Shown: positions 1,437 to 57,135 of the stretch, one piece after another
Layout: the number at the start of each line of letters is the position of its first letter
How positions within the stretch are numbered: position 1 is the first letter of the stretch
Virus record (IMG/VR): IMGVR_UViG_3300000944_000006
Location: 18,380-82,379 of that record
Origin: a virus
Lineage: Duplodnaviria; Heunggongvirae; Uroviricota; Caudoviricetes
Direction: 5' to 3' (one strand)
DNA length: 64,000 bases
The notes under the pieces: generated by a model
Databases searched by the model: none
What the model saw: the letters and a program-made list of their open reading frames with translations, nothing else
What the model was told of the DNA's origin: nothing
Made by a program: the position numbers and the translations under genes

Positions 1437-2510
1437 CTATGTCAACCCCATAAGTTTAATATCTGTACTTGATTTTCCTGCTAAAGCCGCAGGCGTGTTT
1501 AAGTCATCGAAAATTTTAGGAGCGTTATCATTCATTCTTGTTAGCAGTCTTCGCAATGTTTTTTCAGATTGCTTTAGGCTATCAAACGACCATGTTGTTT
1601 CAAAACGATAATAAGATTTCAACAACGCCAAGCGAATAACTTTACCGTCCCAATCTTTAAGTAAATCATGGATATATACAGTATTGCCGAGAGACTTTGA
1701 CATCTTATCACCGCCAATCTTTAAAAATTCATTATGTATCCAGTATTTTGCAAATGTTTTGCCATTAGCACATTCACTTTGGGCACGTTCATTTTCATGA
1801 TGTGGAAATTTTAAATCTATTCCACCTGTATGAATATCAATAGTTTCGCCCAACGTAGCCTTAGCCATAGCAGAACATTCTATGTGCCAACCAACACGAC
1901 CTTTACCAAATGGTGATATCCATCCGACACCATCTTTTTCAGGCTTCCAAAGAACAAAGTCTTCTACATTCTTTTTAATGTCGGTTGTCGAATCAGAAAC
2001 GCGACTGCCTTTTCGCAATTTAGACAAAGTATTTCCAGATAGTTTTCCATAAGAATCATATTTTGTTACATCGAAAAACACATGCCCGTCTTTGACATAT
2101 GCATAGTCAGTTTCGACAAGACCTTTTATCATATCAATCATGTTTTGAATATTATCTGTGGCTTTTGGTTGATATGTTGGTTCAAGACATCCTAATTTAG
2201 TCAAATCATCTTGATATATCTTTGTATATTTTTCGGTTATCTGCTTTATCGACACACCTGTTTCAACAGACTTATTAATGATTTTGTCATCAATATCTGT
2301 AATATTTCTAGCATACAGAACACTATCTTCGCCATAAACATGACGTAGAACGCGAAAAAGAACGTCTGTGACAATAGCAGCGCGAGCATTGCCTATGTGA
2401 GCATAATTATATACAGTGGGGCCGCAGCCATACATGGTCACGCGCTTGGCATCTTGCGGAACAAAAATTTCTTTGTTGTTTGTGGCAGAATTATATAAAC
2501 GGATTTTCAT
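1437..2510 (-). CDS. cysS: cysteinyl-tRNA synthetase, class I catalytic core; C-terminal region truncated relative to bacterial CysRS
   Basis: CGPTVYNYAHIGNARAA (HIGH-type motif), KMSKS present, RNITDIDDKII, WHIECSAM and DDLNTPAA blocks align with bacterial CysRS. The protein stops about 90 aa short of the E. coli length, immediately convergent with the GIY-YIG gene. Start set at MKIRLYN. Confidence 0.8.
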   Translation of the reverse strand: MKIRLYNSATNNKEIFVPQDAKRVTMYGCGPTVYNYAHIGNARAAIVTDVLFRVLRHVYGEDSVLYARNITDIDDKIINKSVETGVSIKQITEKYTKIYQDDLTKLGCLEPTYQPKATDNIQNMIDMIKGLVETDYAYVKDGHVFFDVTKYDSYGKLSGNTLSKLRKGSRVSDSTTDIKKNVEDFVLWKPEKDGVGWISPFGKGRVGWHIECSAMAKATLGETIDIHTGGIDLKFPHHENERAQSECANGKTFAKYWIHNEFLKIGGDKMSKSLGNTVYIHDLLKDWDGKVIRLALLKSYYRFETTWSFDSLKQSEKTLRRLLTRMNDNAPKIFDDLNTPAALAGKSSTDIKLMGLT

Positions 2511-2878
2511 TTTACTAAATCTTCTCTGTCTACCCATGAGCGTTTTTCACTTGGAAATCGTAAAGATACGTGGCGAGTAAGTATGTAATTCTTTAAATCA
2601 TGTAGTTTTTCGAGTGAAATATTGTAGTTTCTAGTATTAAATGCCATTCCAAGAAATATAGATAATGTTGCATTTAATATAGATGCTTCGACAGCAAACG
2701 CTTCTGCCTTATATGCATATGCGTCATCAGTAATTCTTTCACGCGCCCATAAGTAAGCTACTGGTGCAATATCACAATCTGGGCATGCTCCTTCTAGTAC
2801 AGCCAAAATGTTTATGTCTAAAATTGAATAATTGCTCATGGTGATTCCCAAATCGTTTTCTACAACACATATTATCAT
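2507..2878 (-). CDS. hypothetical protein (123 aa)
   Basis: ORF directly downstream of the promoter-cassette copy at 2836-2915. Confidence 0.5.
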   Translation of the reverse strand: MIICVVENDLGITMSNYSILDINILAVLEGACPDCDIAPVAYLWARERITDDAYAYKAEAFAVEASILNATLSIFLGMAFNTRNYNISLEKLHDLKNYILTRHVSLRFPSEKRSWVDREDLVK

Positions 2879-8550: not shown

Positions 8551-8888
8551 GGCTTTTCCGCTTCACGTTCCCATAAATCTCTTTTAATAATTGTCATATA
8601 AATTACTCTTTTTGAGAAATTTGCCATAAAGATATCCCACTTATCGTCGGGATTCTCAAAAACAATATTGTAGACTTTACCTTCTTTAGTGTCGTCATAA
8701 ACAGTTTCTTTATATATAATATTCAATTCATCACAACCACCACCAATTCCCCAGACACTACCGCTCATATCTACATCAACAGACGCTAAAACGATATCGT
8801 CTGTCTTGTTAAGAATTACAACGTCAAGGTCTGCTACTTTAATGTTACCACTCTTATCAGAAACATAATTTAAAGAAGCTTTCATCAT
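8547..8888 (-). CDS. hypothetical protein (113 aa)
   Basis: 4-nt overlap with neighbours. Confidence 0.45.
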   Translation of the reverse strand: MMKASLNYVSDKSGNIKVADLDVVILNKTDDIVLASVDVDMSGSVWGIGGGCDELNIIYKETVYDDTKEGKVYNIVFENPDDKWDIFMANFSKRVIYMTIIKRDLWEREAEKP

Positions 8889-9427
8889 GACAAAAGCTTT
8901 CTAAAAGTAAGTGACACTCTCGGCTTAGCAGGGTCATAAGACATCTTAGGAATTCTATGAAGATGTGTTTGTTGCATACCCGCAGGCATGATAAACAACG
9001 ACCCATTTTCCAAAACTTTTTTATTGATAGAATCAACGCCTTTTGAACCAATTTCTTTCCAATTGATTTCACGATTTTGTCCGAAAGAAATGACAGCAAT
9101 AGGACATGTGTGGTCAATGCCTGCATCATCATCAGAATGCCATCCTAACCAATCCTTGCGTGTATCATATTTGTTAAGAAAACAGCCTTCGAAATATACG
9201 CCAGTTTTGACCAAAAGTTCAGCACGATAATATTCAATAAGGTCAAGATTTTCGTTCGGCTCATATGTACGCACACCACGGCCTGCGCCATATGTGTAAG
9301 GCTTGTTAAGTGTCGTATCCCAATATTCTTTACGTGGCGTATTCTCGCGCTGTATCCAATCTATTTCAAGAAGAGTTTCGTAATCTAATACGTCTGCGAA
9401 ATTTTTAAAATATAAAGGTTCCATCAT
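8885..9427 (-). CDS. 2OG-Fe(II) oxygenase superfamily protein
   Basis: WHSDDD (HxD), distal QTHLHRI histidine and RVSLTFR (2OG-binding Arg). Typical double-stranded beta-helix dioxygenase facial triad. Confidence 0.6.
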   Translation of the reverse strand: MMEPLYFKNFADVLDYETLLEIDWIQRENTPRKEYWDTTLNKPYTYGAGRGVRTYEPNENLDLIEYYRAELLVKTGVYFEGCFLNKYDTRKDWLGWHSDDDAGIDHTCPIAVISFGQNREINWKEIGSKGVDSINKKVLENGSLFIMPAGMQQTHLHRIPKMSYDPAKPRVSLTFRKLLS

Positions 9428-9627
9428 GGCAGAACTTCCTTTTCTATAATTTCAAATTCAATATCAACATATTTAGAAGATTTATTACCTTTTCTTCGCT
9501 TAATATTTTTTAGCGCAGATTTTGCAGATGTTTCATTGCCAAAAACATCTACGATTTGCGTATCTTGATATCCTTCATAGGACAACAGGGAGTCTGTAAT
9601 TTTAAGTATTATGAAAACGGTTTTCAT
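9424..9627 (-). CDS. hypothetical protein (67 aa)
   Basis: ORF. Confidence 0.35.
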   Translation of the reverse strand: MKTVFIILKITDSLLSYEGYQDTQIVDVFGNETSAKSALKNIKRRKGNKSSKYVDIEFEIIEKEVLP

Positions 9628-9629
9628 AA

Positions 9630-10121
9630 CTAAAAATCTGTCATTTTTTTATTTTCTACAAAGCCATTCTTTAAAAGAATATTCTTAACATCGTCAAAAC
9701 CGTCACTCTTTTTTAGCATATACATATTTTCTGATGCTTCATATAGTTCAGTATCAAACACAGAAAGTCCTGTTAAGAATTTTAGCATATAATCACAGCT
9801 TCTATCTGGTATAGAATTATTCTTTTCCCAAAAAAATTCTGACGAAAAGCACATGACTTCAGGAAGACCATTTTCATCATATCCAATACCAAAAAGCTGA
9901 TTTCCACACTCCCATGTCATATAATCAAGGTCTTCGCCTTCTTCATATTCATCTTCGTCCGCAGTATATACTAGAACTTCTAGTCCAGTTTGTTTGTTTT
10001 TAAACTTTCGGAAATAGTCTTCGAATCTATGCTTTTTCTTAGAAAGTCGTTTCCAATCAGAAGTATTTCCGCCATATTCTTCAACTAGAATTTCTTCTTT
10101 AATATAATCTGTAACAGTCAT
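9630..10121 (-). CDS. hypothetical protein (163 aa)
   Basis: ORF. Confidence 0.45.
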   Translation of the reverse strand: MTVTDYIKEEILVEEYGGNTSDWKRLSKKKHRFEDYFRKFKNKQTGLEVLVYTADEDEYEEGEDLDYMTWECGNQLFGIGYDENGLPEVMCFSSEFFWEKNNSIPDRSCDYMLKFLTGLSVFDTELYEASENMYMLKKSDGFDDVKNILLKNGFVENKKMTDF

Positions 10122-10327
10122 AATAATATAATCCCAAATAAACCAAATAATAAAGTTCTGGCTAATCTTTTTTGATTATCGCGCACTAATTTGCTGCTGA
10201 TAACCCAAAAGACAGACGAGACATATCTTTTATACGGATGTAATGAACAGAAAGGGCAATATTCAAAACATCTTCAAAATAATATGTTAACCCCGAAAGG
10301 CCAGATTGACTATACCTTAAAGAAGTT

Positions 10328-10774
10328 TTATGTGCTTGTCAAGCCATTTCGTAATTCTTCACGAACCTTCATTATTATCTTACCAAGCTTGTTTTCACCT
10401 ACACCATTACACACGCCCCAAAACGTATCGTTCCATGTATTATCTTCTACGATTAGACAATTACCTGTGCCTAGAAGTTTTGGCGTAAGGAACATATCAT
10501 TTCGATATTTCTCCCGCGTAAGTTCTAGCATAATATTTTCTTTGATGGAATCCCAATCTTTTCGTATTTTAAGATTTCTTCCATATTTTTTAGCATCGCC
10601 TGCATAGGTTAGTTTAGATATTTTGATTCGTTCTTCTTCGTCTAATGTCTTAGCAGCGACATATGCATGTTCTACAGAAGGATACAAAATATATTCAAAC
10701 ATTATGTCTACACGTTGAAAGTTAGACAACCATCTATATTTGCCATGAAAGCCAATTATATCTTCTTGAAGCAT
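10328..10774 (-). CDS. NADAR-domain protein (YbiA-like; NAD/ADP-ribose-associated)
   Basis: FHGKYRWLSNFQ...YPSVEHAYVAAK...GNCLIVEDNTWNDTFWGV matches the F-x-G-x-Y-x-x-LSNF signature of NADAR/DUF1768. Confidence 0.7.
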   Translation of the reverse strand: MLQEDIIGFHGKYRWLSNFQRVDIMFEYILYPSVEHAYVAAKTLDEEERIKISKLTYAGDAKKYGRNLKIRKDWDSIKENIMLELTREKYRNDMFLTPKLLGTGNCLIVEDNTWNDTFWGVCNGVGENKLGKIIMKVREELRNGLTST

Positions 10775-11016
10775 TAAGTTTCTAACTGTTCAGGAAAAAG
10801 ACATTTATCTGCACGGCAGTCATCAACTAACATTTCAAGCATTGTCAAGGCTTTTTGACGCATTTTATGTTGACTTCTTCCATACACACGAACAGATTGC
10901 ATTGTAGGAATGTGCGTTACAGTCATCCAAGAATTATTTGGGCCGCAATGCCACTGTCCCTTTAATGGCTTGTCAGTATTACCTACAATTTTTATATCTT
11001 TTTCGTCTAACATCAC
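10774..11016 (-). CDS. hypothetical protein (80 aa)
   Basis: ORF. Confidence 0.4.
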   Translation of the reverse strand: MMLDEKDIKIVGNTDKPLKGQWHCGPNNSWMTVTHIPTMQSVRVYGRSQHKMRQKALTMLEMLVDDCRADKCLFPEQLET

Positions 11017-11921
11017 ATGTCCCGCTTTTTTGTTTCGTAGAAGTGTTTAGCGATACCAAAACGAGGGACACCGCGCGGTGTAAGGTTTTGGTATTTGATT
11101 GTCGCAGGATTGCCAATATATTTTTCTTTATTTTTTAAAAGATATCGACAAAATGCCGTGTTGCCTTTTATACCTGCCTTGGCAGTCAATTCACCATCGA
11201 CTCTATAAAGAACACTCTTAGCAGCGCCCATCCATTTACCAGTACCTTCTATAATATCCAAAACTTCGTATTCAGCATCATAGAACTTTTTAACTTTCCA
11301 AATATATTTTGAAATCTTTTGTTCATATGGAGAATCGTGGGGAAAGCGTATCATTATGCCTTCATAACCTTGCTCAATACACATATCTAATTCTTCTTTA
11401 ATAGATTCAATATTAGAATCAAAAAATGCAGTATTAATCAAGTTAACTACACCGCCGTTTTCTGACAGTTGTCCTATGAATTTTTTATAATACATCCAAC
11501 GATTAAAAAATGACATATCAGAACCGTCATAAAAATCGAAAATATGAAACTGTAGATGTTCAACAGCTAATTCAATTTCTTCTTTTGTCGGAACTTGTTT
11601 TTTCGCGAGCGAAATGATTTGATTAAAATCATCTTTGAAGTCGTGATTATAAAGTTCTCCATCTATCACAAGTTTAGGAAATATTTTGAAAACAGGACGA
11701 AGAATATCTTGTATATGTCCTGTTGTTTGGAACAGATTGCCTTCTTTTGTGTAAGCCCCGTCTATAGTGATATAGCATCGAATACCGTCTGCTTTAGGCT
11801 GTCTACAAAGGGCTGTCACACTTGGTGTTGTTTTTATATTTCTAGCAAACCACTTTTCAAGTTCGACTTGCTTATCTTCATCTATCGGGAATGTCCGCGA
11901 TAACATAGGTTTAAATTTCAT
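11013..11921 (-). CDS. ATP-dependent DNA ligase, minimal (adenylation + OB domains only)
   Basis: Motif I KADGIRC (the K-x-D-G-x-R form typical of DNA ligases, as in T4 gp30 KADGAR), DGELY (motif III), YEGIMIR (motif IV). At 302 aa it lacks an N-terminal DNA-binding domain. Confidence 0.7.
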   Translation of the reverse strand: MKFKPMLSRTFPIDEDKQVELEKWFARNIKTTPSVTALCRQPKADGIRCYITIDGAYTKEGNLFQTTGHIQDILRPVFKIFPKLVIDGELYNHDFKDDFNQIISLAKKQVPTKEEIELAVEHLQFHIFDFYDGSDMSFFNRWMYYKKFIGQLSENGGVVNLINTAFFDSNIESIKEELDMCIEQGYEGIMIRFPHDSPYEQKISKYIWKVKKFYDAEYEVLDIIEGTGKWMGAAKSVLYRVDGELTAKAGIKGNTAFCRYLLKNKEKYIGNPATIKYQNLTPRGVPRFGIAKHFYETKKRDM

Positions 11922-12022
11922 TATTATCCTTTTATATTTAAAACCTGCTTCAGTGTATGGACGATTTCAACAAGGTCTTCTTGCGCTGCCATAACATTAT
12001 TTATGTCTTTTAAGAATATTTA

Positions 12023-12370
12023 CTATTTTTTGACAAAGTTATCTCCTGTTGTTTCTTTCTTTTCTTTTCGCTTAAAGAACCAAATCCACAGCAAAAATAA
12101 CACAGTAGGAGTTCCTATGACAACAGGACATGTAAATAATGCTAAAAGAAATCCCAACACAATCATAAGACAAGCACAGATAAACAGTGCCTGAATGAAA
12201 AGTATAGCTGTCGCAAGACCAAGTTTATTACGTCTATCTTTATCAAATTTAATACTCTTATCGAAAAGAGATGTTAAAAGCGGAACATCAGTTTCCCATC
12301 TAAACTTTCCCTCTCTTTCCTTCTCATAAAAAACATTATTCCAGAAGTTTGTCCATACATGCTTAACCAT
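12023..12370 (-). CDS. membrane protein
   Basis: Two strong TM segments. Confidence 0.4.
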   Translation of the reverse strand: MVKHVWTNFWNNVFYEKEREGKFRWETDVPLLTSLFDKSIKFDKDRRNKLGLATAILFIQALFICACLMIVLGFLLALFTCPVVIGTPTVLFLLWIWFFKRKEKKETTGDNFVKK

Positions 12371-12719
12371 AATTTCCTACACAATACCATCTTCCAAATT
12401 TTACAAAATGCTGTTGCATGTTGTCATGCTCACGTAAAAATTTATTAAGAAGTTTCTTTTGCACCTTTACTTTTGCTTGTGGATTTGCCTTTGTTTTACG
12501 CACATCCATGTTAACGGCTTGCGCCATATCTTCATATTCCTTGTTACTAACAGACGTTTTATAGTCTGTCAACACACGTTCCATTTCTGTGTGGTCGCGA
12601 AATAATAGAAAAATATATTTAGAATCTATTTGAATATATCCATTTGCCTTGGATTTAGATTCTTTTACGATATCATTAATCGTGTCTATATCGTCATATG
12701 TTGTCTTGATAGTTATCAT
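12363..12719 (-). CDS. hypothetical protein (118 aa)
   Basis: ORF. Confidence 0.45.
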   Translation of the reverse strand: MITIKTTYDDIDTINDIVKESKSKANGYIQIDSKYIFLLFRDHTEMERVLTDYKTSVSNKEYEDMAQAVNMDVRKTKANPQAKVKVQKKLLNKFLREHDNMQQHFVKFGRWYCVGNYG

Positions 12720-13054
12720 AGTGTTGATAGAGGATTTGCAATTTTCATTGGGGGATGTTTAAGACGTTGAAAGCCAGAAATCTTTTTAATTTTAGGTGAT
12801 GCTAGGTCTGATATATCAACAAGACAAAATATTCGAAGATAGCTGTCTGGCTTAATAAGATATTGTTCAGGAACTTTAAGTGTCTCGTTAGTATTAAAAT
12901 CCATAGGTAGAATTCCCTTGATTAAGGGCGATACGGTTATGTCCATATCAAATCTTATCGCATAATTAGTATAATTAAAAAAATATGTTACTGACGAATC
13001 GCTAGATTTGTATATATTAATTTTTGAAATATCTATGAAAAATTTATATAACAT
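12716..13054 (-). CDS. hypothetical protein (112 aa)
   Basis: ORF. Confidence 0.4.
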   Translation of the reverse strand: MLYKFFIDISKINIYKSSDSSVTYFFNYTNYAIRFDMDITVSPLIKGILPMDFNTNETLKVPEQYLIKPDSYLRIFCLVDISDLASPKIKKISGFQRLKHPPMKIANPLSTL

Positions 13055-18214: not shown

Positions 18215-18574
18215 TTAATGTATAGCGGTTGTTGGCGAAAGCACATCGAAGACTTTCTTGCATGTGTATTTATAAACCATGCCATTATCCCCATCTAGCT
18301 TTTGTTCTACGCCCATTTCATAATGTGGTGATGTAGCAGACATAGATGCTTCTGTTAGTTCAAAATGCTGTGACATGCCAAAATATGTCACAGACGATGT
18401 GTTTGCACATTGTATCGCTGACAGGATAGTCATATCCGATAGCAATTTCTGCATGAATACAGGACGTTGATAGATATCCGAAACTGAAAAGGTTATATTT
18501 CCAAGACGTTTTCGAATATCCGTCTTTTCGTCCATTTCATCGGCATAATCCATTAAATGTTCTTTTGTATTCAT
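18215..18574 (-). CDS. hypothetical protein (119 aa)
   Basis: ORF. Confidence 0.45.
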   Translation of the reverse strand: MNTKEHLMDYADEMDEKTDIRKRLGNITFSVSDIYQRPVFMQKLLSDMTILSAIQCANTSSVTYFGMSQHFELTEASMSATSPHYEMGVEQKLDGDNGMVYKYTCKKVFDVLSPTTAIH

Positions 18575-20406: not shown

Positions 20407-20736
20407 TTAACATAAATTTATACTACATTGATTCAATTTCGCTGAATCTAATTTAATATTTCTTATATCGGCTCTTATAATATCTAAATTAGTCAATTTA
20501 AGGATTTCAATTGATTTAGAAGTTTTGAAATAAAGCGTTTCTTTACTATCTTTAAATTTTACGAAAACTTTGTTCAAAAAGTTTTGTTGTGTATCATTTC
20601 CTACATGAAAGTGTACACTAAATAAAACCTCACGCAACCCGTCCTCGGCATAATATCTTAAGCATACATCATTGTGGCCCATGTAATATACACTAACATC
20701 GCGTATATTTGAAAAGTCTATTTTATATTTGTACAT
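20407..20736 (-). CDS. small protein, MYKYKI family
   Basis: Starts MYKYKIDFSN. Paralogous N-termini at 20723, 28514, 29413, 33604 and 35719. Confidence 0.45.
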   Translation of the reverse strand: MYKYKIDFSNIRDVSVYYMGHNDVCLRYYAEDGLREVLFSVHFHVGNDTQQNFLNKVFVKFKDSKETLYFKTSKSIEILKLTNLDIIRADIRNIKLDSAKLNQCSINLC

Positions 20737-21100
20737 GTCTTTGCGTAACCGTGTCTACAAATCGAAAATCTTCAAATGTTAATTCGACTGTATGTGAAGG
20801 AAAATTGAAAGATGTGCTATGTATAGTTGACACACAAAGAATAGCTTCAAAATATAAAATAGATTTTTCTTTGTTAAAATGATTTATAACACGTCTTAGA
20901 ATTGAATTTGCGAAGTCAGTGTTCATTTGTTCATCGCTCGTAGGAAAAATATGTGCATAAATCTTGTGCGTACCTACAAAATAACTAACCATAACATTGC
21001 CACTATCTGTAATAATGACATCCCATGCAGTAGAAAAATCTATTTTAAATTTTTGCGGCGTTTCTAACATGGTTGAAATCTTTCTTTTCTTTAAAAGCAC
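20723..21100 (-). CDS. small protein, MYKYKI-family-like (QKFKIDFST)
   Basis: N-terminal region similar to the neighbouring gene. Confidence 0.4.
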   Translation of the reverse strand: MLLKKRKISTMLETPQKFKIDFSTAWDVIITDSGNVMVSYFVGTHKIYAHIFPTSDEQMNTDFANSILRRVINHFNKEKSILYFEAILCVSTIHSTSFNFPSHTVELTFEDFRFVDTVTQRHVQI

Positions 21101-22448
21101 CGTTATTATAAACTGTCGTTAGTTTATTGTCATCAAGTATATCATCTTCGCCTGTTGTATATTCTCCATTTAGATTAACAGATGTCAGAAATCCTTTTTT
21201 GAATTTCTTTGAATTGTTGGTGAATGATTTGAATGCGGCACGGCGTCCACCATCATCAATAAAAGAATTGGCAGAAGACATAAACTGAAACGTGTTTTTC
21301 GAAACATTTTGGTACATGCTTCCGCGCATACACAGCACAAAGTTGTTAATAGATACTTTACTTGCCTTACATAACTTAACAAAATTTTCAAAATCTTTTA
21401 GAGACTGCCAATCATACTGGAACATAATTTTAACACGATGCGAAATGCGATATCCACGGTCTGTTGTTGTCTGGGGGAAAGTTGCCAAAATCTTTTCCAT
21501 AAGCGCAATGACTTCTTCTTGTGTGATGCCGTTACCACATTTAAGATGCACTTTACGTGTTGTATATGATTCTATTTTTTCTTTTAATATTTCGCATATA
21601 TATGTTTCAACAGCATCTTCGGCATTATGTGTGTCAATAGTTAATGCGGTATTATCTGGCGTTTGCTCGCTGTCAAAGCTTTCTAAAAAGTGTTGATATG
21701 CAAGAACTTCGTTTTGAACGCCCCACGACAATGTGACAAGATTGTCATTTCCATTATATCCACTATTATCTGTAAAGAAATTAGAATAAATTTCATTTCC
21801 AATATTTACGGCAGATGTTGCTTCTGTTGTGTCAAAATTTATAAGATGTGCGATAGCTGTTATATCTGCTGTTTCCTTCGAAGACATTTCAGAAAAGCTT
21901 TCATCATGCAGTACAATATCTTCTGGGCCAATATCATCATATCCAATAGACGTTTCTTCGTCTATAATATCTTTTAAAATTTTCTTTATTTCTCGCGAAA
22001 TTGTAGCAACTGTGGATGGTAGCCATATCGCACGTAACAAAGCCTTTTCTATGTGCGACACAAGCCATGCACACTTAGGGTCTGTGTTGATGACTTGGTA
22101 TAAAGGCGTCTTAAACGGTACAACAGACCCTTCTGGCAGGGCTTGTATTTTTATTGGTATAGCGCCGTCATATGTTTTTAAAATATATTCCCATCCTTCG
22201 TAATTAAATTCCATACCAGATTTTTCTGCAACATTTTGTGCAATTTTCAAATCATCTTCTGTGATAGGTTTCGAAAGATGTTGATTTATAAAAAGGTGAT
22301 GTCCTGTATAGACCATTTCCTTAATAGGTTTGTACTTATCGTCAGACGAACCATTTGCTTCACCACACACAGACGCGTGTTCTAATGTTAATTGGTAATG
22401 ACGTGCAGCGTCAAGTTTGTGGAATAATGTGTTAAGAATAATGCTCAT
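21045..22448 (-). CDS. nicotinamide phosphoribosyltransferase (NAMPT/NadV) family protein, divergent; possibly non-catalytic
   Basis: Block EGWEYILKTYDGAIPIKIQALPEGSVVPFKTPLYQVINTDPKCAWLVSHIEKALLRAIWLPSTVATISREIKKIL aligns closely with NAMPT ([74 protein letters not shown]). Where NAMPT has HDFGYRG the phage protein has HDESFSE, and the His247-equivalent position appears to be Asp. Confidence 0.7.
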   Translation of the reverse strand: MSIILNTLFHKLDAARHYQLTLEHASVCGEANGSSDDKYKPIKEMVYTGHHLFINQHLSKPITEDDLKIAQNVAEKSGMEFNYEGWEYILKTYDGAIPIKIQALPEGSVVPFKTPLYQVINTDPKCAWLVSHIEKALLRAIWLPSTVATISREIKKILKDIIDEETSIGYDDIGPEDIVLHDESFSEMSSKETADITAIAHLINFDTTEATSAVNIGNEIYSNFFTDNSGYNGNDNLVTLSWGVQNEVLAYQHFLESFDSEQTPDNTALTIDTHNAEDAVETYICEILKEKIESYTTRKVHLKCGNGITQEEVIALMEKILATFPQTTTDRGYRISHRVKIMFQYDWQSLKDFENFVKLCKASKVSINNFVLCMRGSMYQNVSKNTFQFMSSANSFIDDGGRRAAFKSFTNNSKKFKKGFLTSVNLNGEYTTGEDDILDDNKLTTVYNNGAFKEKKDFNHVRNAAKI

Positions 22449-24391: not shown

Positions 24392-24468
24392 TGGTACGCG
24401 AGGCAAGATTCGAACTTGCGATAGTTCCGTTATGAGCGGAAAGCTTTAGACCACTTAGCTACTCGCGC
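24392..24468 (-). tRNA. tRNA-Met or tRNA-Ile2 (anticodon CAU), CCA encoded
   Basis: Hand-folded cloverleaf: acceptor GCGCGAG/CTCGCGT, anticodon stem TTCCG/CGGAA, loop CTCATAA, T-arm GCAAG-TTCGAAT-CTTGC. 77 nt. Not initiator-like. Confidence 0.7.
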
Positions 24469-24482
24469 ACGACATATAAATT

Positions 24483-24529
24483 TGGAGCGAACAACGGGAC
24501 TCGAACCCGTATATCCGCTTGGTGTTGTT
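24483..24529 (-). pseudogene. tRNA 3' half remnant (T-arm GGGTTCGAGTCCC + acceptor 3' strand + CCA-like end), no 5' half
   Basis: Only 47 nt separate the flanking tRNAs. It contains a perfect T-arm and a 6-bp AACAAC/GTTGTT stem but no D-arm or anticodon arm. Confidence 0.4.
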
Positions 24530-24604
24530 TGGCATGCCCGACAGGACTTGAACCTGTGACCCCAGATTAAAAATCTGATGTTCTACCAACTGAACTACGG
24601 GCAT
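24530..24604 (-). tRNA. tRNA-Lys (anticodon UUU)
   Basis: Acceptor ATGCCCG/CGGGCAT, D-arm GTTC-AGTTGGTAG-AAC, anticodon stem TCAGA/TCTGG with loop TTTTTAA, T-arm ACAGG-TTCAAGT-CCTGT, discriminator G + CCA. Confidence 0.7.
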
Positions 24605-25183: not shown

Positions 25184-25909
25184 TTATCTTAGTCGATTAC
25201 GTCTTTTCTTGTTAGACCGCTTTTTAGACGATGCATTACCTTTAGAAAAAAGCTGCTTAGAATGTCTACTGTCTCGTTGCCCTTCTTTTGATTTAATATC
25301 GTTATCGCCAGACCTGTATTTTTCGTAGACCTTGTGTGCAGGTGATTTAAATGTCCAAAGGCGCTTTGTCATAACCTGTATTTCGCATATAACACCGTCT
25401 ATGTCGACTTTAAAATGATGACTTCCGTAATAGCCATAATCTTTATCACGACCTTTTTCTTTATAGTCATATTTAAAAATTATAGCTTTTTTCTTTAAAG
25501 CCTTTACAACTTTTTCAACTTCGTAATCGTCTTTAAGAAGAATAGCGCCTCGCAGAAAATCATGTATGTCACCTGCCGACACACCGCGCTTAAAAACTTT
25601 ATCAATAAAAGAATCTGCGGGCTTAACACCTATTAAAATTTTAGCACCTTTGCCAGATACATGTTTCATCAAACTTTCAAACTTTTTTGTCCGCACAGTG
25701 ATGTATTTCTTTGCAACAAAATCATATGCGGCAAATCTTTCATCGTCATTATTTGTAGGAAGGTCTTTAAAGTCCTTTGCCCAAGGCTGTTTCTTTACAT
25801 TAGACTTACGGCGTTCTGTCAAAAGAGAATCAAAGATGTCCCAATTTTCATTAAACTGTATTTTATTTTCTATCAAATCTTCATAATAAAAATCTGTAAA
25901 TCTATGCAT
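25184..25909 (-). CDS. RelA/SpoT-homolog small alarmone synthetase-like nucleotidyltransferase (toxSAS-like) with basic C-terminal tail
   Basis: RTKKFESLMK (R-x-K-x3-S-x2/3-K), DFLRGAIL (D-x-x-G-x-R region), YYGSHHF (Y-x-S-x-H), VICEIQVMTKRLW (E-x-Q-x-R/M-T) reproduce the RSH synthetase-domain motif order. C-terminus KKRSNKKRRNRLR. Confidence 0.65.
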   Translation of the reverse strand: MHRFTDFYYEDLIENKIQFNENWDIFDSLLTERRKSNVKKQPWAKDFKDLPTNNDDERFAAYDFVAKKYITVRTKKFESLMKHVSGKGAKILIGVKPADSFIDKVFKRGVSAGDIHDFLRGAILLKDDYEVEKVVKALKKKAIIFKYDYKEKGRDKDYGYYGSHHFKVDIDGVICEIQVMTKRLWTFKSPAHKVYEKYRSGDNDIKSKEGQRDSRHSKQLFSKGNASSKKRSNKKRRNRLR

Positions 25910-37061: not shown

Positions 37062-37138
37062 TGGCACACCTAACAGGACTCGAACCTGTAACATCCTGCT
37101 TAGAAGGCAAGCACTCTATCCAGTTGAGTTATAGGTGT
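37062..37138 (-). tRNA. tRNA-Arg (anticodon UCU), CCA encoded, followed by a U-run
   Basis: Acceptor ACACCTA..., D-loop TAACTCAACTGGATAGAGT, anticodon stem CTTGC/GCAGG with loop CTTCTAA, T-arm GGTTCGAGTCC. 77 nt. TTTTTTTATAGG follows the 3' end on the minus strand. Confidence 0.7.
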
Positions 37139-42448: not shown

Positions 42449-43945
42449 TTATATTTTCTCCCACCTATCCGTTATAGGGCGTCCTACAGGGGCCATAGAA
42501 AAGTTTTTGTATCCATACTTAGATATAAGATTAACAATGTTCTTAACGTACTCATGATTGCAGTCAGACACCAAACGATTTACTAAACCATGTTCATCAA
42601 TATATTCCAGTGTTAAAACACAATGGTCGTAATCATGTGAATGGTCGTCATTAATTGAACATACAGTAAGACGTAGCGCATCTTTGGGGAAGTTGTAATC
42701 CTGTCTAAGACGATAATAAACTTCCAATGCCATGTCTTCGCAGTTATGTCCTAAAATACCATTTTCAAAAACAAATGTAGACGTTCCTGCTACTGTTATA
42801 TCGTAACACTTCTTCACGCCATTAGAAGTAATATCTTTAGTTTTTATCCTAGTTTGCCCAAGACCTTCAAAACCATAGTCTTTTTGATGTGAAGAATTTT
42901 TGTTATATATTACTCTATATATAGGCTGTGTTCCAGAACCGCCATGTTTCTCTTGCGTGTAAATTCTAGCAGACTTACCAACACGCAGTAAAGCGGCCTG
43001 TATCCATTCAGCAAATTTTTTACATGACGTTGAATATGTTTTATCAGGTTCCGTACCCCATCCACCGTTACTAGATTTTACATGATAATGTCCATCACCT
43101 AAAAAATATCCTTCAAGTATATAATTTAGACATACTTCTGGAAGATTTAAGTATTTGTCCATACGAATATCAAAAGAATTTTCCTTAAGTGGTTTTAAGA
43201 AATCCTTAAACCAAGACTTCAAAAATCTTACACAAGGAACACCAGAATTATTTTTAAATAATGTATAAGGAATTTTATATTTATCTAAAATAGGAAGAAT
43301 AAATTCAGGAATGTCATGTCCAGATGTAGAAACTTTACTAATTTTATTACTTCCCTGCGGACGGTCTACCCATCCTTCTGCAAGATAATGTCCCACAACA
43401 AACCAAATATCGTCATCAAGAACATTCTCAATTTCTGTGTATGGTAGATTTAAAGCACACGGAACATATTCCCAATGAACACTCTTTCCATCAATAATTT
43501 CTTTCAATTTTCTTTTTGTGTATCCGTTTTGTTGTTGTTTTTCTTTAGACCACATATTATGATTTTCTGTAACAACAATTTCATTTCCGTTATGAAACGG
43601 TACAGTAAAGGTTTCTAAATTTCCTTTATCCATTTTATTTATGATAACTTTATCAATATATTTTTTTTCGACAAAATCATAAGACATACAAACATCACCT
43701 ATTTGTGCATCTTTGATTGGAACAGCTACATATTCATCATTACGTTTTAACCATATTTTTTGATTTTCTTCTACACAATCACCTAATAGAATAGGTCTGC
43801 CAAAGAAATCCACATCAACAGTAGGACGCGTCCAGTGTTCAGGTACTGCCCAATTATTTTGGTCTGAACGCCATACGAAAATAGATTTAACATCCTCATG
43901 TACTTTTTTAAAAGTAGCTACCTGTGCGTGTGTAAGTTTTAACAT
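42449..43945 (-). CDS. intein-containing protein: 153-aa extein resembling a papain/transglutaminase-like Cys hydrolase, split by a 345-aa LAGLIDADG intein
   Basis: Intein blocks: C at N-junction (LLGD/CVEENQ), VVTENHNMW (T-x-x-H block B), two LAGLIDADG motifs (FVVGHYLAEGWV, ILEGYFLGDGHY), C-terminal YDITV...FENGILGHN followed by C. Spliced extein junction GDCEDMA (G-x-C-x-x-x-A) plus downstream HSHDYDH suggests a Cys-His-Asp hydrolase. Confidence 0.6.
   Translation of the reverse strand: MLKLTHAQVATFKKVHEDVKSIFVWRSDQNNWAVPEHWTRPTVDVDFFGRPILLGDCVEENQKIWLKRNDEYVAVPIKDAQIGDVCMSYDFVEKKYIDKVIINKMDKGNLETFTVPFHNGNEIVVTENHNMWSKEKQQQNGYTKRKLKEIIDGKSVHWEYVPCALNLPYTEIENVLDDDIWFVVGHYLAEGWVDRPQGSNKISKVSTSGHDIPEFILPILDKYKIPYTLFKNNSGVPCVRFLKSWFKDFLKPLKENSFDIRMDKYLNLPEVCLNYILEGYFLGDGHYHVKSSNGGWGTEPDKTYSTSCKKFAEWIQAALLRVGKSARIYTQEKHGGSGTQPIYRVIYNKNSSHQKDYGFEGLGQTRIKTKDITSNGVKKCYDITVAGTSTFVFENGILGHNCEDMALEVYYRLRQDYNFPKDALRLTVCSINDDHSHDYDHCVLTLEYIDEHGLVNRLVSDCNHEYVKNIVNLISKYGYKNFSMAPVGRPITDRWEKI
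42743..43777 (-). mobile_element. LAGLIDADG homing-endonuclease intein (about 345 aa)
   Basis: Boundaries computed from junctions ...PILLGD|CVEEN and ...GILGHN|CEDMA. Confidence 0.6.
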
Positions 43946-54235: not shown

Positions 54236-54350
54236 GTGCGCGTAACCAAGCTGTGAAAATATCTTCGTCAGAAACTACAATATTATGCTTAGTCATAAGT
54301 TTCTGTAATTTTTGTATAATACTATGCTTCACAAGCAAAACATTCTCCAT
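54147..54350 (-). CDS. hypothetical protein downstream of nrdA
   Basis: Start set at internal MENVLLVK. Confidence 0.35.
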   Translation of the reverse strand: MENVLLVKHSIIQKLQKLMTKHNIVVSDEDIFTAWLRAHEGVWNDDVPDDFDNVMSKIIPHVNVHFE

Positions 54351-57135
54351 TTGATGCCTGAACACCTGCTTCAGACCGTATATAATATAATGACTTAATA
54401 TAAGGATTGACAAAAGCTTCTGAATGTATCATCGCAACATATTCTGGGTCTTCATCAGCAGATATATACAAATTTATAGATTGTGCTTGGTCAATATATT
54501 TTTGTCGTTGTGCCGCATAACGTATAATCGTCAATTGGTCAATCTCAAAAGCTGTTTTGAACAAAGCCTTTTCATCGTCACTAAAAAATTCTAAATGCTG
54601 AACAGACCCTTTATTATCGACAATGGAATCAATAATTGCATCTGTATATTGTCCATGCTTTTCAAGATATTCGATAAGAACTGGATTTATACGGTTCATT
54701 TTACCTGCGGCTGTACCTTGCGTATAAACATTTTTAGGAAATGGTGATATGCCTTCAGAAACACTACCACACACAATAGCAGATGATAGAGTAGGTGCTA
54801 CTGCCATAAGTGTAGCATTGCGTCGACCAAGACCCTTACAAGATTCTGGTTCACCTAATTCTGCGGCAAGCCATTCCGTAGCAGCTTCTGCTTGTACTTG
54901 GATATTTTTAAATATTTCCACATTTTTAAATTGCGCTTCAAGGCTTTCCCAAGGAATACCATTTTTCTGAAAATATGTGTGAAGACCGAGTGTGCCCAAG
55001 CCTAATGCACGGAAACGTTGTGTGAAACGAACGACTTTTTCAAGACCTTCCATATCTTTACCGCGCTGTATAAGGTCTTCGCAAACGCAATCTAAAAGAA
55101 CAATTGCTGTTTCAATCGCATTCGTATCTTTCCATTCATCATATTTTGCCAGATTCATAGACGATAGAACGCAAGAAAATGTATGTTCTTCATCAGAAGG
55201 TAGCGCAATTTCAGAGCAGTTAAATGTTTTCATGCCCTGTGCAATAAATATGTGTTCATCTGTATGTACAGTTGGACAATATACATCTTCTTTACCATAA
55301 TACTCTATAGATTTTATTTTGTAACCCTTTTTAGAATTATCACGATACTTTCGATTTTCTAAATGAACACCTTTTCGGGATAAAAATCCTGTATGTTTTT
55401 CGACAACCAAGCAATCATTTTTATTTCCTACAATAAGTCTCCAACAATCTTTTGTGTTATATAGCTTTTGTCCACCTTTTCCATCTGGCAATAATGATTC
55501 ACCTGCTTTTCTTAGTATTCGTATAGAAGTTTGAAGTCCTAAGTTTTGGAATAAAATTTGAAGTTCTTTAATAAAATCTAAGTTAATATCTGTGTATGAT
55601 AAATGTATAGGATTTCCTTTTGAAGGAGATACATTTATTGTACCATCTGCGTATAATAGCCCGCGAACATATTCCCATTGTGTCTTTTCGTCAGATTCCC
55701 ATATCCAAGAAGGGACATACCCTTTTTCAAAATTCAAGGCTTTTTTAAGAGTAGCAGAAGACAATGTTCTTTTTCTATGGCTTCCTTCGCGAACATGTGA
55801 TTCGCGAAACTTAGCAGGTGTTCTTCCGCGATATTTTCCAGTTTTTCCTATTTCATATTTATCGCATCCGTATTTGTAATGTATTCGGTCAAATTTTTCT
55901 TTGATTTCATTCTCTAAATCAAAATCATTTTCCCAAAGACACAGATGAATAGAATTTTTGTGTTGCGTTCCGTCCGATTGATACTGACCTAACAAAAATG
56001 CTTCATCTTGCATATCGGCATTTCCAAAAATACCTTTGTTAGTTTGAATTGCAATTTTATGACCTATGTTCAGGTCTTTCAATTCAATTCGTGTGATATT
56101 ATTTCTTGCATCAATAACAGGAAACCCATGATTATCCGTGGCTTTAATTTCCATTCCATTTTCTAATGTAACTTTATAAACATCTTGGTTTTCGCCACGT
56201 AAAATCATTTTTGTAGAATTTACCTTATTTTCGCCGTCAAATAATACCAAAGATTCATTTATATCATGAAGTTCTTTAGCTGTTAAATATCCATATGACG
56301 AAACTACGCGCGTATCACCTGTTATACAAAGATTAGAAGCTTTGATTAGCATACCACTATTTTTAATAGCAGGTGGTGCTAAATCATTCATGCGGTCAAT
56401 AAAACAAAAATATCCCTTGCCTGTAACAAGCTTACGCAACAACGCACGTTTAAAGCGAGAATTTGCTTCTTTGTCGCCATTCACTAATCGTGCAATAAAT
56501 TCATCAGAAATATTCCAACCAATATTTAAATCATCTGGATAATTTTTCATATGGTCGCAAATATCCCAAAAATCTCCATGTTCGATTGGAAGATAGCCTG
56601 CCCATGCACCGCGTCTCGAAGACCCTTGTGACACTTGAACTGCTGTATTAACATGTCCTTGGATAACAGGAACTACCCCATCTGCAACACCGTCTACACC
56701 ATATTTCTCGCCACGCGGACGTATATCCCCAAGATATGATGACGTTCCAAAGCCATATTTTGAAAGCATTGCCGTTTCTGTATAAGACCCAAAGAAACCT
56801 GCTATACTATCTGGTGTATAGTTTCCAGAACAGCTTACAGAAAGCCCTTTTTCCGTCCCTGTATTGGACATAACAGGCGTTGAAAGAGAAAGATAACCTT
56901 TCCACACAACATCAAAGAAACGCTTCTCCCAATGCTTAGAATTAGGCATATGGGCGGCGAGTGTTTTAGATATTCTCTTTAATTGCTCTTTATATGTTGT
57001 AGCTTCGAACAGATATTTTTGTTTGAACATAGACCATCCAATAGTTGTAAACCACATAGGAAGGTCGCCATCTTCTTGCATTTTTTTCCGCTCTTGCGAA
57101 AGTTCTTCATAAGTATTTTCGTTTAAATTATCCAC
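54322..57135 (-). CDS. nrdA: ribonucleotide reductase class I large subunit (no ATP-cone), interrupted by an intein at the active-site cysteine
   Basis: Extein junction ...IKASNL|CSEIALPS restores the catalytic SNLCSEI motif. C-terminal CFAC pair present. Extein about 567 aa. Confidence 0.8.
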   Translation of the reverse strand: MDNLNENTYEELSQERKKMQEDGDLPMWFTTIGWSMFKQKYLFEATTYKEQLKRISKTLAAHMPNSKHWEKRFFDVVWKGYLSLSTPVMSNTGTEKGLSVSCSGNYTPDSIAGFFGSYTETAMLSKYGFGTSSYLGDIRPRGEKYGVDGVADGVVPVIQGHVNTAVQVSQGSSRRGAWAGYLPIEHGDFWDICDHMKNYPDDLNIGWNISDEFIARLVNGDKEANSRFKRALLRKLVTGKGYFCFIDRMNDLAPPAIKNSGMLIKASNLCITGDTRVVSSYGYLTAKELHDINESLVLFDGENKVNSTKMILRGENQDVYKVTLENGMEIKATDNHGFPVIDARNNITRIELKDLNIGHKIAIQTNKGIFGNADMQDEAFLLGQYQSDGTQHKNSIHLCLWENDFDLENEIKEKFDRIHYKYGCDKYEIGKTGKYRGRTPAKFRESHVREGSHRKRTLSSATLKKALNFEKGYVPSWIWESDEKTQWEYVRGLLYADGTINVSPSKGNPIHLSYTDINLDFIKELQILFQNLGLQTSIRILRKAGESLLPDGKGGQKLYNTKDCWRLIVGNKNDCLVVEKHTGFLSRKGVHLENRKYRDNSKKGYKIKSIEYYGKEDVYCPTVHTDEHIFIAQGMKTFNCSEIALPSDEEHTFSCVLSSMNLAKYDEWKDTNAIETAIVLLDCVCEDLIQRGKDMEGLEKVVRFTQRFRALGLGTLGLHTYFQKNGIPWESLEAQFKNVEIFKNIQVQAEAATEWLAAELGEPESCKGLGRRNATLMAVAPTLSSAIVCGSVSEGISPFPKNVYTQGTAAGKMNRINPVLIEYLEKHGQYTDAIIDSIVDNKGSVQHLEFFSDDEKALFKTAFEIDQLTIIRYAAQRQKYIDQAQSINLYISADEDPEYVAMIHSEAFVNPYIKSLYYIRSEAGVQASNGECFACEA
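55219..56328 (-). mobile_element. LAGLIDADG homing-endonuclease intein in nrdA (370 aa)
   Basis: Starts CITGDTRVV, contains FLLGQYQSDGT and RGLLYADGT LAGLIDADG motifs, ends ...GMKTFN before Cys+1. Penultimate residue is Phe rather than His. Confidence 0.7.

Follow-up and report, generated by a model that had tools for sequence, protein, structure and literature searches.

What a free-standing NADAR gene does for the phage that carries it is the question raised by a locus in IMG/VR virus record IMGVR_UViG_3300000944_000006 (Duplodnaviria; Heunggongvirae; Uroviricota; Caudoviricetes), of which the 64,000-nucleotide stretch from position 18,380 to position 82,379 was analyzed here (this whole stretch is called the window, and all coordinates below are window coordinates). 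The NADAR coding sequence lies on the minus strand at 10328-10774 as an ATG-to-TAA open reading frame (ORF) of 148 amino acids (ATG at 10774, TAA at 10328-10330) that encodes the core domain only, with no N-terminal extension; it is an intact, free-standing NADAR gene in a large, AT-rich phage. A first-pass annotation, made from the sequence alone, had proposed that the product reverses guanine ADP-ribosylation as a candidate anti-defense enzyme. Judged from its sequence and by analogy with characterized enzymes, the gene probably (probability of roughly 0.62) encodes an active single-domain NADAR that serves as an orphan antitoxin, erasing DarT1-type guanine marks from phage DNA.

Assignment of the gene to the NADAR family was unequivocal. 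The F-x-G-x-Y-x-x-LSNF signature that the first-pass annotation had reported is an exact match, far beyond chance, with residues 9 to 19 reading F9-H-G11-K-Y13-R-W-L16-S17-N18-F19 (10718-10750, minus strand; codon positions checked). The profile search that it had recommended recovered the domain as well, with Pfam PF08719 (NADAR/DUF1768; gathering score of 35.1) matching residues 12 to 142 at 82.5 bits (E = 5.5e-23). The viral family phrog_1017 matched the protein at E = 4.9e-39, and sequence comparison against the PDB identified Escherichia coli YbiA (2b3w; E = 3.2e-18) and the NADAR of Phytophthora nicotianae (8bau; E = 9e-4). A search of 5.8 billion proteins returned 970 homologues at E ≤ 1e-5, the closest non-self protein being 65% identical; the best 120 of these 970 all carry PF08719 and almost all are 135 to 186 amino acids long (one has 216). 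With tblastn, 462 phage records spanning many host genera also gave homologues, all at about 53% identity or less. The window NADAR is a member of phrog_1017, a widespread phage clade of core-only, glutamate-type proteins. A 29.9-kb Logan contig carries the exact protein, and a contig of 151 kb is recorded for its cluster. The opposite strand has ORFs at 10191-10607 and 10330-10488, which are probably shadows of the NADAR gene.

The predicted structure agrees with this assignment. An AlphaFold2 model built from 43 homologues had a mean predicted local distance difference test score (pLDDT) of 94.8 and a predicted template modeling score (pTM) of 0.88, with the domain beginning at about residue 6 of 148 and no N-terminal extension in the model. 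Only two significant matches were returned by Foldseek against the PDB, namely YbiA (2b3w; template modeling [TM] score of 0.89, root mean square deviation of 2.1) and the ADP-ribose-bound Phytophthora NADAR (8bau; TM score of 0.81), and the model superposes on these solved NADARs, sharing an alpha-helical core flanked by small beta elements. In the Phytophthora complex the ligand is contacted by E43, K50, K75, R79, D86, W89, R93, E125, D130 and W133, with E43 at the distal ribose and K50 at the phosphate and adenine, and mutagenesis of the E. coli C7 NADAR found the equivalents of E43, K50 and E125 to be required for guanine de-ADP-ribosylation (Schuller et al. 2023, PMC11543638). Allowing for the numbering of the printed Phytophthora chain (paper numbering plus two), alignments map the contacts to E35, K42, K62, R66, D73, W74, K78, E110, D116 and W119 of the window protein, and every ligand-binding or catalytic residue described for the Phytophthora and C7 NADARs has an identical or conservative counterpart there. 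E35 (10670-10672) and K42 (10649-10651), which together span 10649-10672 on the minus strand, are equivalent to Phytophthora E43/K50, C7 NADAR E88/K95 and T4 AdfN E36/K43, equivalents for which there is mutational evidence (PMC11543638, PMC11257639). The predicted ADP-ribose-binding stretch (10541-10591, minus strand) comprises K62, R66, D73, W74 and K78, equivalent to Phytophthora K75, R79, D86, W89 and R93, and the predicted catalytic residue E110 (10445-10447) lies with D116 and W119 in 10418-10447 (minus strand; Phytophthora E125, D130 and W133). Across an alignment of 43 sequences (alignment A1), L16, S17, N18, E35, K42, W74, E110, D116 and W119 were invariant and F9, F19, K62 and D73 were at least 90% conserved; R66 and K78 were on neither list. 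The residues expected of the superfamily (Ser, Glu, Lys and an acidic residue or His at the position of Phytophthora E125) are S17, E35, K42 and E110. The catalytic acidic residues E35 and E110 are thus present alongside K42, D116 and W119 in a high-confidence NADAR fold. The first-pass annotation had named two findings that would count against it, a failed profile search and missing catalytic acidic residues on structure modeling; given the strong PF08719 match and the acidic residues in the modeled fold, neither objection therefore stands.

Evidence for a function in counterdefense comes from phage NADARs that have already been assayed. T4 gp30.3 (AdfN) is a DNA ADP-ribosyl glycohydrolase that is both necessary and sufficient for T-even phages' resistance to DarTG1 (Johannesman, Carlson and LeRoux, bioRxiv 2024, PMC11257639; Nat Commun 2025, PMC11825919). 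The same studies tested two unrelated phage NADARs, those of the T5-like phages Bas32/Bas33 and of Bas60-62, which neutralized DarT1 in uninfected cells and restored three DarTG1-sensitive phages by several logs, with no help against DarTG2 (PMC11257639, PMC11825919). According to the authors, the Bas32 and Bas33 proteins are identical (PMC11257639, PMC11825919). A hidden Markov model of the clade of the window protein identified bas33_0070 (QXV80081.1) as the sole NADAR in the whole Bas33 genome (MZ501074), and 144 residues of the window NADAR align with this protein at 43% identity (E = 7e-40). The earlier suggestion that a free-standing phage NADAR is a plausible counterdefense factor is therefore supported through this homology to a protein family in which the role has been demonstrated experimentally, and reversal of DarT1-type guanine ADP-ribosylation, which the first-pass annotation had invoked, is likewise established for phage NADARs, acting on DarTG1 but not DarTG2 (PMC11257639, PMC11825919). 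Removal of ADP-ribose from DarT1-modified DNA together with rescue on DarTG1 hosts has been shown only for the T4, Bas32 and Bas60 NADARs (PMC11257639). All NADAR subfamilies assayed so far hydrolyze guanine-ADP-ribose in vitro. YbiA and T4 AdfN are active in vitro, yet neither neutralizes DarT1 in uninfected E. coli. A lysine of the C7 NADAR, K115, is dispensable in vitro but required for rescue from DarT1 toxicity in vivo (PMC11543638). At this position (alignment A2), the window protein (K62, codon 10589-10591) and the Bas33 NADAR both have Lys, whereas YbiA has Ala and T4 AdfN has Gln; presence of Lys tracks reported neutralization of DarT1 in uninfected cells, a correlation over four sequences. 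The shared K62 lysine favors in vivo competence of the window NADAR, as far as a conserved residue can indicate it, and Lys at the C7 NADAR K115 position may be a simple marker predicting which NADARs neutralize DarT1 in vivo.

From the gene, its fold and conserved active site, the fact that it is a phage-borne orphan and the homology that links it to a tested enzyme, we infer that the protein is active, that its substrate is marked DNA and that it functions in counterdefense. No transferase domain was found among precomputed Pfam hits in the surrounding 20 kb of the phage gene array, and the closest relatives, too, come from phage or prophage DNA and have no transferase next to them. The NADAR would be made together with the phage DNA ligase during the replication phase of infection, when a DarT1-type ADP-ribosyltransferase of the host would mark phage DNA and block its replication. 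By analogy with the Phytophthora complex, K42, R66, W74 and W119 would hold the pyrophosphate and adenine and the distal ribose would be gripped by E35 and E110, with E110 predicted to drive hydrolytic cleavage of the N-glycosidic bond that joins ribose C1'' to the exocyclic N2 of guanine. The marks would be erased in this way, releasing free ADP-ribose and restoring the unmodified base. Several points weigh against this proposal. An identity of 43% is no guarantee that the window NADAR would have the same in vivo specificity, as the behavior of YbiA and T4 AdfN in uninfected E. coli illustrates, and the family includes the small-molecule N-glycosidase YbiA, which is 36% identical to the window NADAR. 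The proposal also presupposes a host that carries a DarTG1 system. It is also worth noting that the activity of the Bas32 NADAR was shown by ectopic expression, and the text describes no deletion of the gene from its own phage (PMC11257639, PMC11825919).

The position of Phytophthora E125 separates the NADAR subfamilies: Glu marks the 'NADAR' and YbiA families, DarT1-associated DarG1 has Asp there, and phage NADARs of the T4 type have His (PMC11543638, PMC12945103). The window NADAR has Glu (E110) at this position. Membership of the T4-type AdfN (gp30.3) group was rejected, as gp30.3 has His at the aligned position of E110 and the two proteins are 21% identical overall. DarG1 (the BC4488 family) was rejected because the window protein has no beta1-beta2-alpha1 N-terminal extension and no adjacent transferase (DarT1); it also has Glu rather than Asp. 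Nor is it a true YbiA as defined by the NCBIfam equivalog TIGR02464, scoring 69.1 bits against a cut-off of 73.7. On the same model YbiA scored 169.5 bits, P0025 82, P0002 79.1, Bajun 75.7 and the Bas33 NADAR 66.8, and by these profile scores the phage clade straddles the cut-off and stands apart from true YbiA. The DS-32 NADAR anti-phage defense protein (NF053876) was likewise rejected (37.7 bits against a cut-off of 240), and a PADLOC search returned no DarT or DarG model and only a weak match to PDC-M42C (E = 9.6e-9). Searched against the PDB, a profile of the clade matched YbiA (E = 1.5e-33) and the Phytophthora NADAR (E = 1.4e-15), with no further NADAR chain in the PDB at E ≤ 1.

Gene organization around the NADAR bears on its likely substrate. 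It is the last gene of a tightly, translationally coupled unit on the minus strand that begins with an ATP-dependent DNA ligase (11013-11921; PF01068, E = 1.9e-10; phrog_114, E = 8.5e-47; its OB domain, PF14743, scores 22.9 bits, under the 28-bit cut-off) and continues with ORF80 (10774-11016; 79-80 amino acids): the ligase stop overlaps the ORF80 start (TGATG), and the ORF80 stop overlaps the NADAR start (TAATG). Downstream of the NADAR, a 206-nucleotide gap and two ORFs without matches are followed by an AlkB-like 2-oxoglutarate-Fe(II) oxygenase (8885-9427, minus strand; PF13532, E = 2.5e-15; phrog_21963 'alkylated DNA repair', E = 1e-58), an enzyme that repairs nucleic acid by direct reversal and lies three genes, or 0.9 kb, from the NADAR on the same strand. 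Coupling of the NADAR to a DNA ligase and its proximity to an AlkB-like repair oxygenase favor DNA as the substrate. The AlkB-like oxygenase and the ligase make up a small group of enzymes for nucleic-acid repair or the reversal of damage. ORF80 carries the motifs KGQ...THIPT...RSQHK and weakly resembles the GGQ domain of release factors, with scores far under the cut-offs (Pfam RF-1, E = 0.0094; NCBIfam prfA, E = 1.3e-4). The single phage homologue found, from Dinoroseobacter phage R26L (45% identity), has neither the GQ nor the SQHK motif and no NADAR beside it; ORF80 was accordingly rejected as a release-factor-like partner.

Comparison of NADAR neighbors covered T5-like phages, Brevundimonas phage Bajun, T4, two metagenomic phage contigs and one prophage. 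No conserved partner gene emerged, as the neighbors elsewhere are not homologous to ORF80, ORF163 or ORF67. Since the neighbors are unrelated across the compared loci, the NADAR behaves as a mobile single-gene cassette, one that usually sits in replication or nucleotide-metabolism blocks. Proximity of ligase and NADAR was seen in the window and in T4, and not in the T5-like phages, Bajun or the metagenomic relatives examined. In T4 (NC_000866, 125745-128765), adfN (30.3) is two genes away from gene 30, which encodes the ATP-dependent DNA ligase, with the alt ADP-ribosyltransferase just beyond. The window has 33-35% GC, nearly all of its genes are on the minus strand and most are without a Pfam match; megablast of 9000-13000 against 50,697 phage records returned no match. 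A promoter scan around the NADAR gave 24 promoter-like sites against 16.7 expected, and both promoter and terminator scans were uninformative.

The first-pass annotation had also seen a thematic fit between the NADAR and a nicotinamide phosphoribosyltransferase-like gene (NAMPT; 21045-22448, minus strand; phrog_448, E = 1.8e-60) through nicotinamide adenine dinucleotide (NAD) and ADP-ribose metabolism. Gene organization lends this no support: the two are about 10 kb and 25 genes apart with no shared unit, and no NMNAT was found near NAMPT. More widely, the ORFs at 19.9-27.2 kb gave no NMNAT, Nudix, macro or transferase domain. A NAD-salvage partner for NAMPT was therefore not found; if the gene belongs to a NAD-reconstitution pathway, the second enzyme is elsewhere or unrecognizable. 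A Tad8 match on the ORF at 20723-21100, just downstream of NAMPT, was not significant (E = 0.009; 16 bits against a cut-off of 27), and exact look-up of the NAMPT product returned no record. NAMPT and NADAR may both reflect pressure from NAD-consuming host immunity, which is a general theme rather than evidence on the NADAR enzyme.

Three other accounts of the enzyme, and one elaboration, have to be set against erasure of DarT1-type marks. The one with most in common with it would make the protein a broader nucleic-acid de-ADP-ribosylase, acting on cytosine as well as guanine in DNA, RNA or both and countering pierisin/ScARP-like, YarT-like or other toxins. This is possible, if unlikely, and it extends rather than excludes the erasure of DarT1 marks. 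We know of no defense system that ADP-ribosylates cytosine, and cytidine-ADP-ribose activity in this phage clade would follow by analogy with other Glu-type NADARs. The argument for it starts from E110, the Glu at the key catalytic position: in a 2026 study removal of cytidine-ADP-ribose, from DNA as well as RNA, was confined to Glu-type NADARs (the NADAR and YbiA families), while the Asp-type (DarG1) and His-type (T4) enzymes removed guanine-ADP-ribose only (PMC12945103), and for this reason the window enzyme may have broader substrates and other target toxins. A YbiA-type NADAR is, moreover, the antitoxin of YarT, a transferase unrelated to DarT. Carried further, the same reasoning would make the Glu-type, core-only clade phrog_1017 a family of dual guanine/cytosine de-ADP-ribosylases that here forms, with the ligase and the AlkB-like enzyme, a direct-reversal repair cluster directed against host marking enzymes; we regard this as quite unlikely, and if true it would point to undiscovered cytosine- or RNA-directed ADP-ribosylating defenses in the hosts of these phages.

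The remaining accounts would take the enzyme away from marked DNA. As a small-molecule N-glycosidase it would destroy reactive riboflavin intermediates, as YbiA/COG3236 does, or degrade NAD- or ADP-ribose-derived immune signals, perhaps together with the NAMPT encoded in the window; the latter option is the NAD-metabolite processing that the first-pass annotation had offered as its alternative. YbiA is indeed the closest solved structure (E = 3.2e-18, 36% identity, TM score of 0.89), the TIGR02464 score comes near the cut-off, and genome context led Iyer et al. (2022) to argue that low-molecular-weight ADP-ribose derivatives are the main targets of phage NADARs. Calibration of TIGR02464 tells otherwise, the window score being far from that of true YbiA and resembling that of the DarT1-neutralizing Bas33 NADAR. 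No riboflavin genes, whether as a ribA/ribD fusion or a cluster, are among the annotated genes of the window (annotation coverage is incomplete), and the NADAR protein is single-domain; NAMPT is distant, as described above, and the immediate neighbors are DNA enzymes. Nucleic-acid activity has been found in every NADAR assayed since 2023. The profile calibration, the DNA-enzyme context and this uniform activity together weaken the small-molecule account, which we consider distinctly improbable. Barely credible, finally, is an RNA- or ribosome-repair module of ligase, release-factor-like ORF80 and NADAR, loosely like RtcB-PrfH or Tpt1-linked repair, in which the NADAR would clear ADP-ribose by-products. 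Translational coupling of the three genes, the weak likeness of ORF80 to the GGQ domain of release factor 1 and the context by which NADAR domains were first tied to RNA-repair systems (Iyer et al. 2022) speak for it. However, the ligase matches phage ATP-dependent DNA ligases (phrog_114) and not RNA ligases, the release-factor similarity of ORF80 is below every curated cut-off with its motifs not kept in the only phage homologue, and each related locus examined has other NADAR neighbors, so a conserved module is absent; no Tpt1/KptA, RtcB or 2H gene was seen.

Several genes elsewhere in the window are of separate interest. A 241-amino-acid product at 25184-25909 (minus strand; phrog_37685, E = 1.5e-33) has a borderline RelA/SpoT domain (PF04607, 26.5 bits against a cut-off of 27) and on this similarity may be a phage small alarmone-synthetase-like enzyme. 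At 1437-2537 (minus strand), a 366-amino-acid product contains a complete class-I cysteinyl-tRNA synthetase catalytic domain (PF01406, E = 1.8e-111), which is unusual for a phage gene, and genes for tRNA-Met, tRNA-Lys and tRNA-Arg lie at 24392-24604 and 37062-37138. Two genes (54322-57135 and 42449-43945, both minus strand) contain inteins with LAGLIDADG homing-endonuclease domains; one of the two host genes encodes the large subunit of ribonucleotide reductase, and the other only weakly matches an anaerobic ribonucleotide reductase phrog.

The counterdefense role of phage NADARs is already published and is not novel, and because a protein of the same clade, the Bas33 NADAR, has already been tested, its extension to the window gene is a matter of homology and not a new idea. 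The window NADAR is instead a divergent addition to an experimentally established class of enzymatic phage counterdefenses, and it places a Bas32-type orphan NADAR in an uncultured phage that is AT-rich and at least 151 kb in size. While it opens no new question by itself, its Glu-type active site makes it a reasonable candidate for a possible additional erasure of cytidine ADP-ribosylation by phage NADARs.

Set beside named systems, the window NADAR shares with DarG1 its superfamily, the same predicted reaction (reversal of guanine-N2 ADP-ribosylation) and the equivalents of E88, K95 and K115. DarG1 is nonetheless encoded beside DarT1, has a beta-beta-alpha extension forming a basic DNA groove and uses a catalytic Asp, all three of which are absent from the window NADAR. 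Among solved structures none matches better in fold and sequence than YbiA (2b3w), which has a Glu-type active site and hydrolyzes both guanine- and cytidine-ADP-ribose in vitro; it differs in being a chromosomal housekeeping gene with a longer N-terminus, without an equivalent of K62 and without neutralization of DarT1 in vivo. AdfN(T4), gp30.3, is likewise an orphan, core-only phage NADAR that keeps the equivalents of E35 and K42 and is encoded two genes from a phage DNA ligase, but at 21% identity it has His where the window protein has E110 and Gln where it has K62, works only within T-even infection and does not remove cytidine-ADP-ribose. AdfN(Bas32) (bas33_0070) belongs to an unrelated phage lineage, with T5-like neighbors (RNase H, ThyA and ribonucleotide reductase) in place of the ligase, ORF80 and AlkB of the window, and differs at 57% of residues; its activity is proven, whereas that of the window NADAR is predicted. 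Both are nonetheless phage-borne, free-standing, core-only proteins of nearly equal length (149 amino acids against 148 in the window), both score just under the TIGR02464 cut-off, both are encoded among replication and nucleotide-metabolism genes, and both combine a Glu-type active site with a Lys matching C7 NADAR K115.

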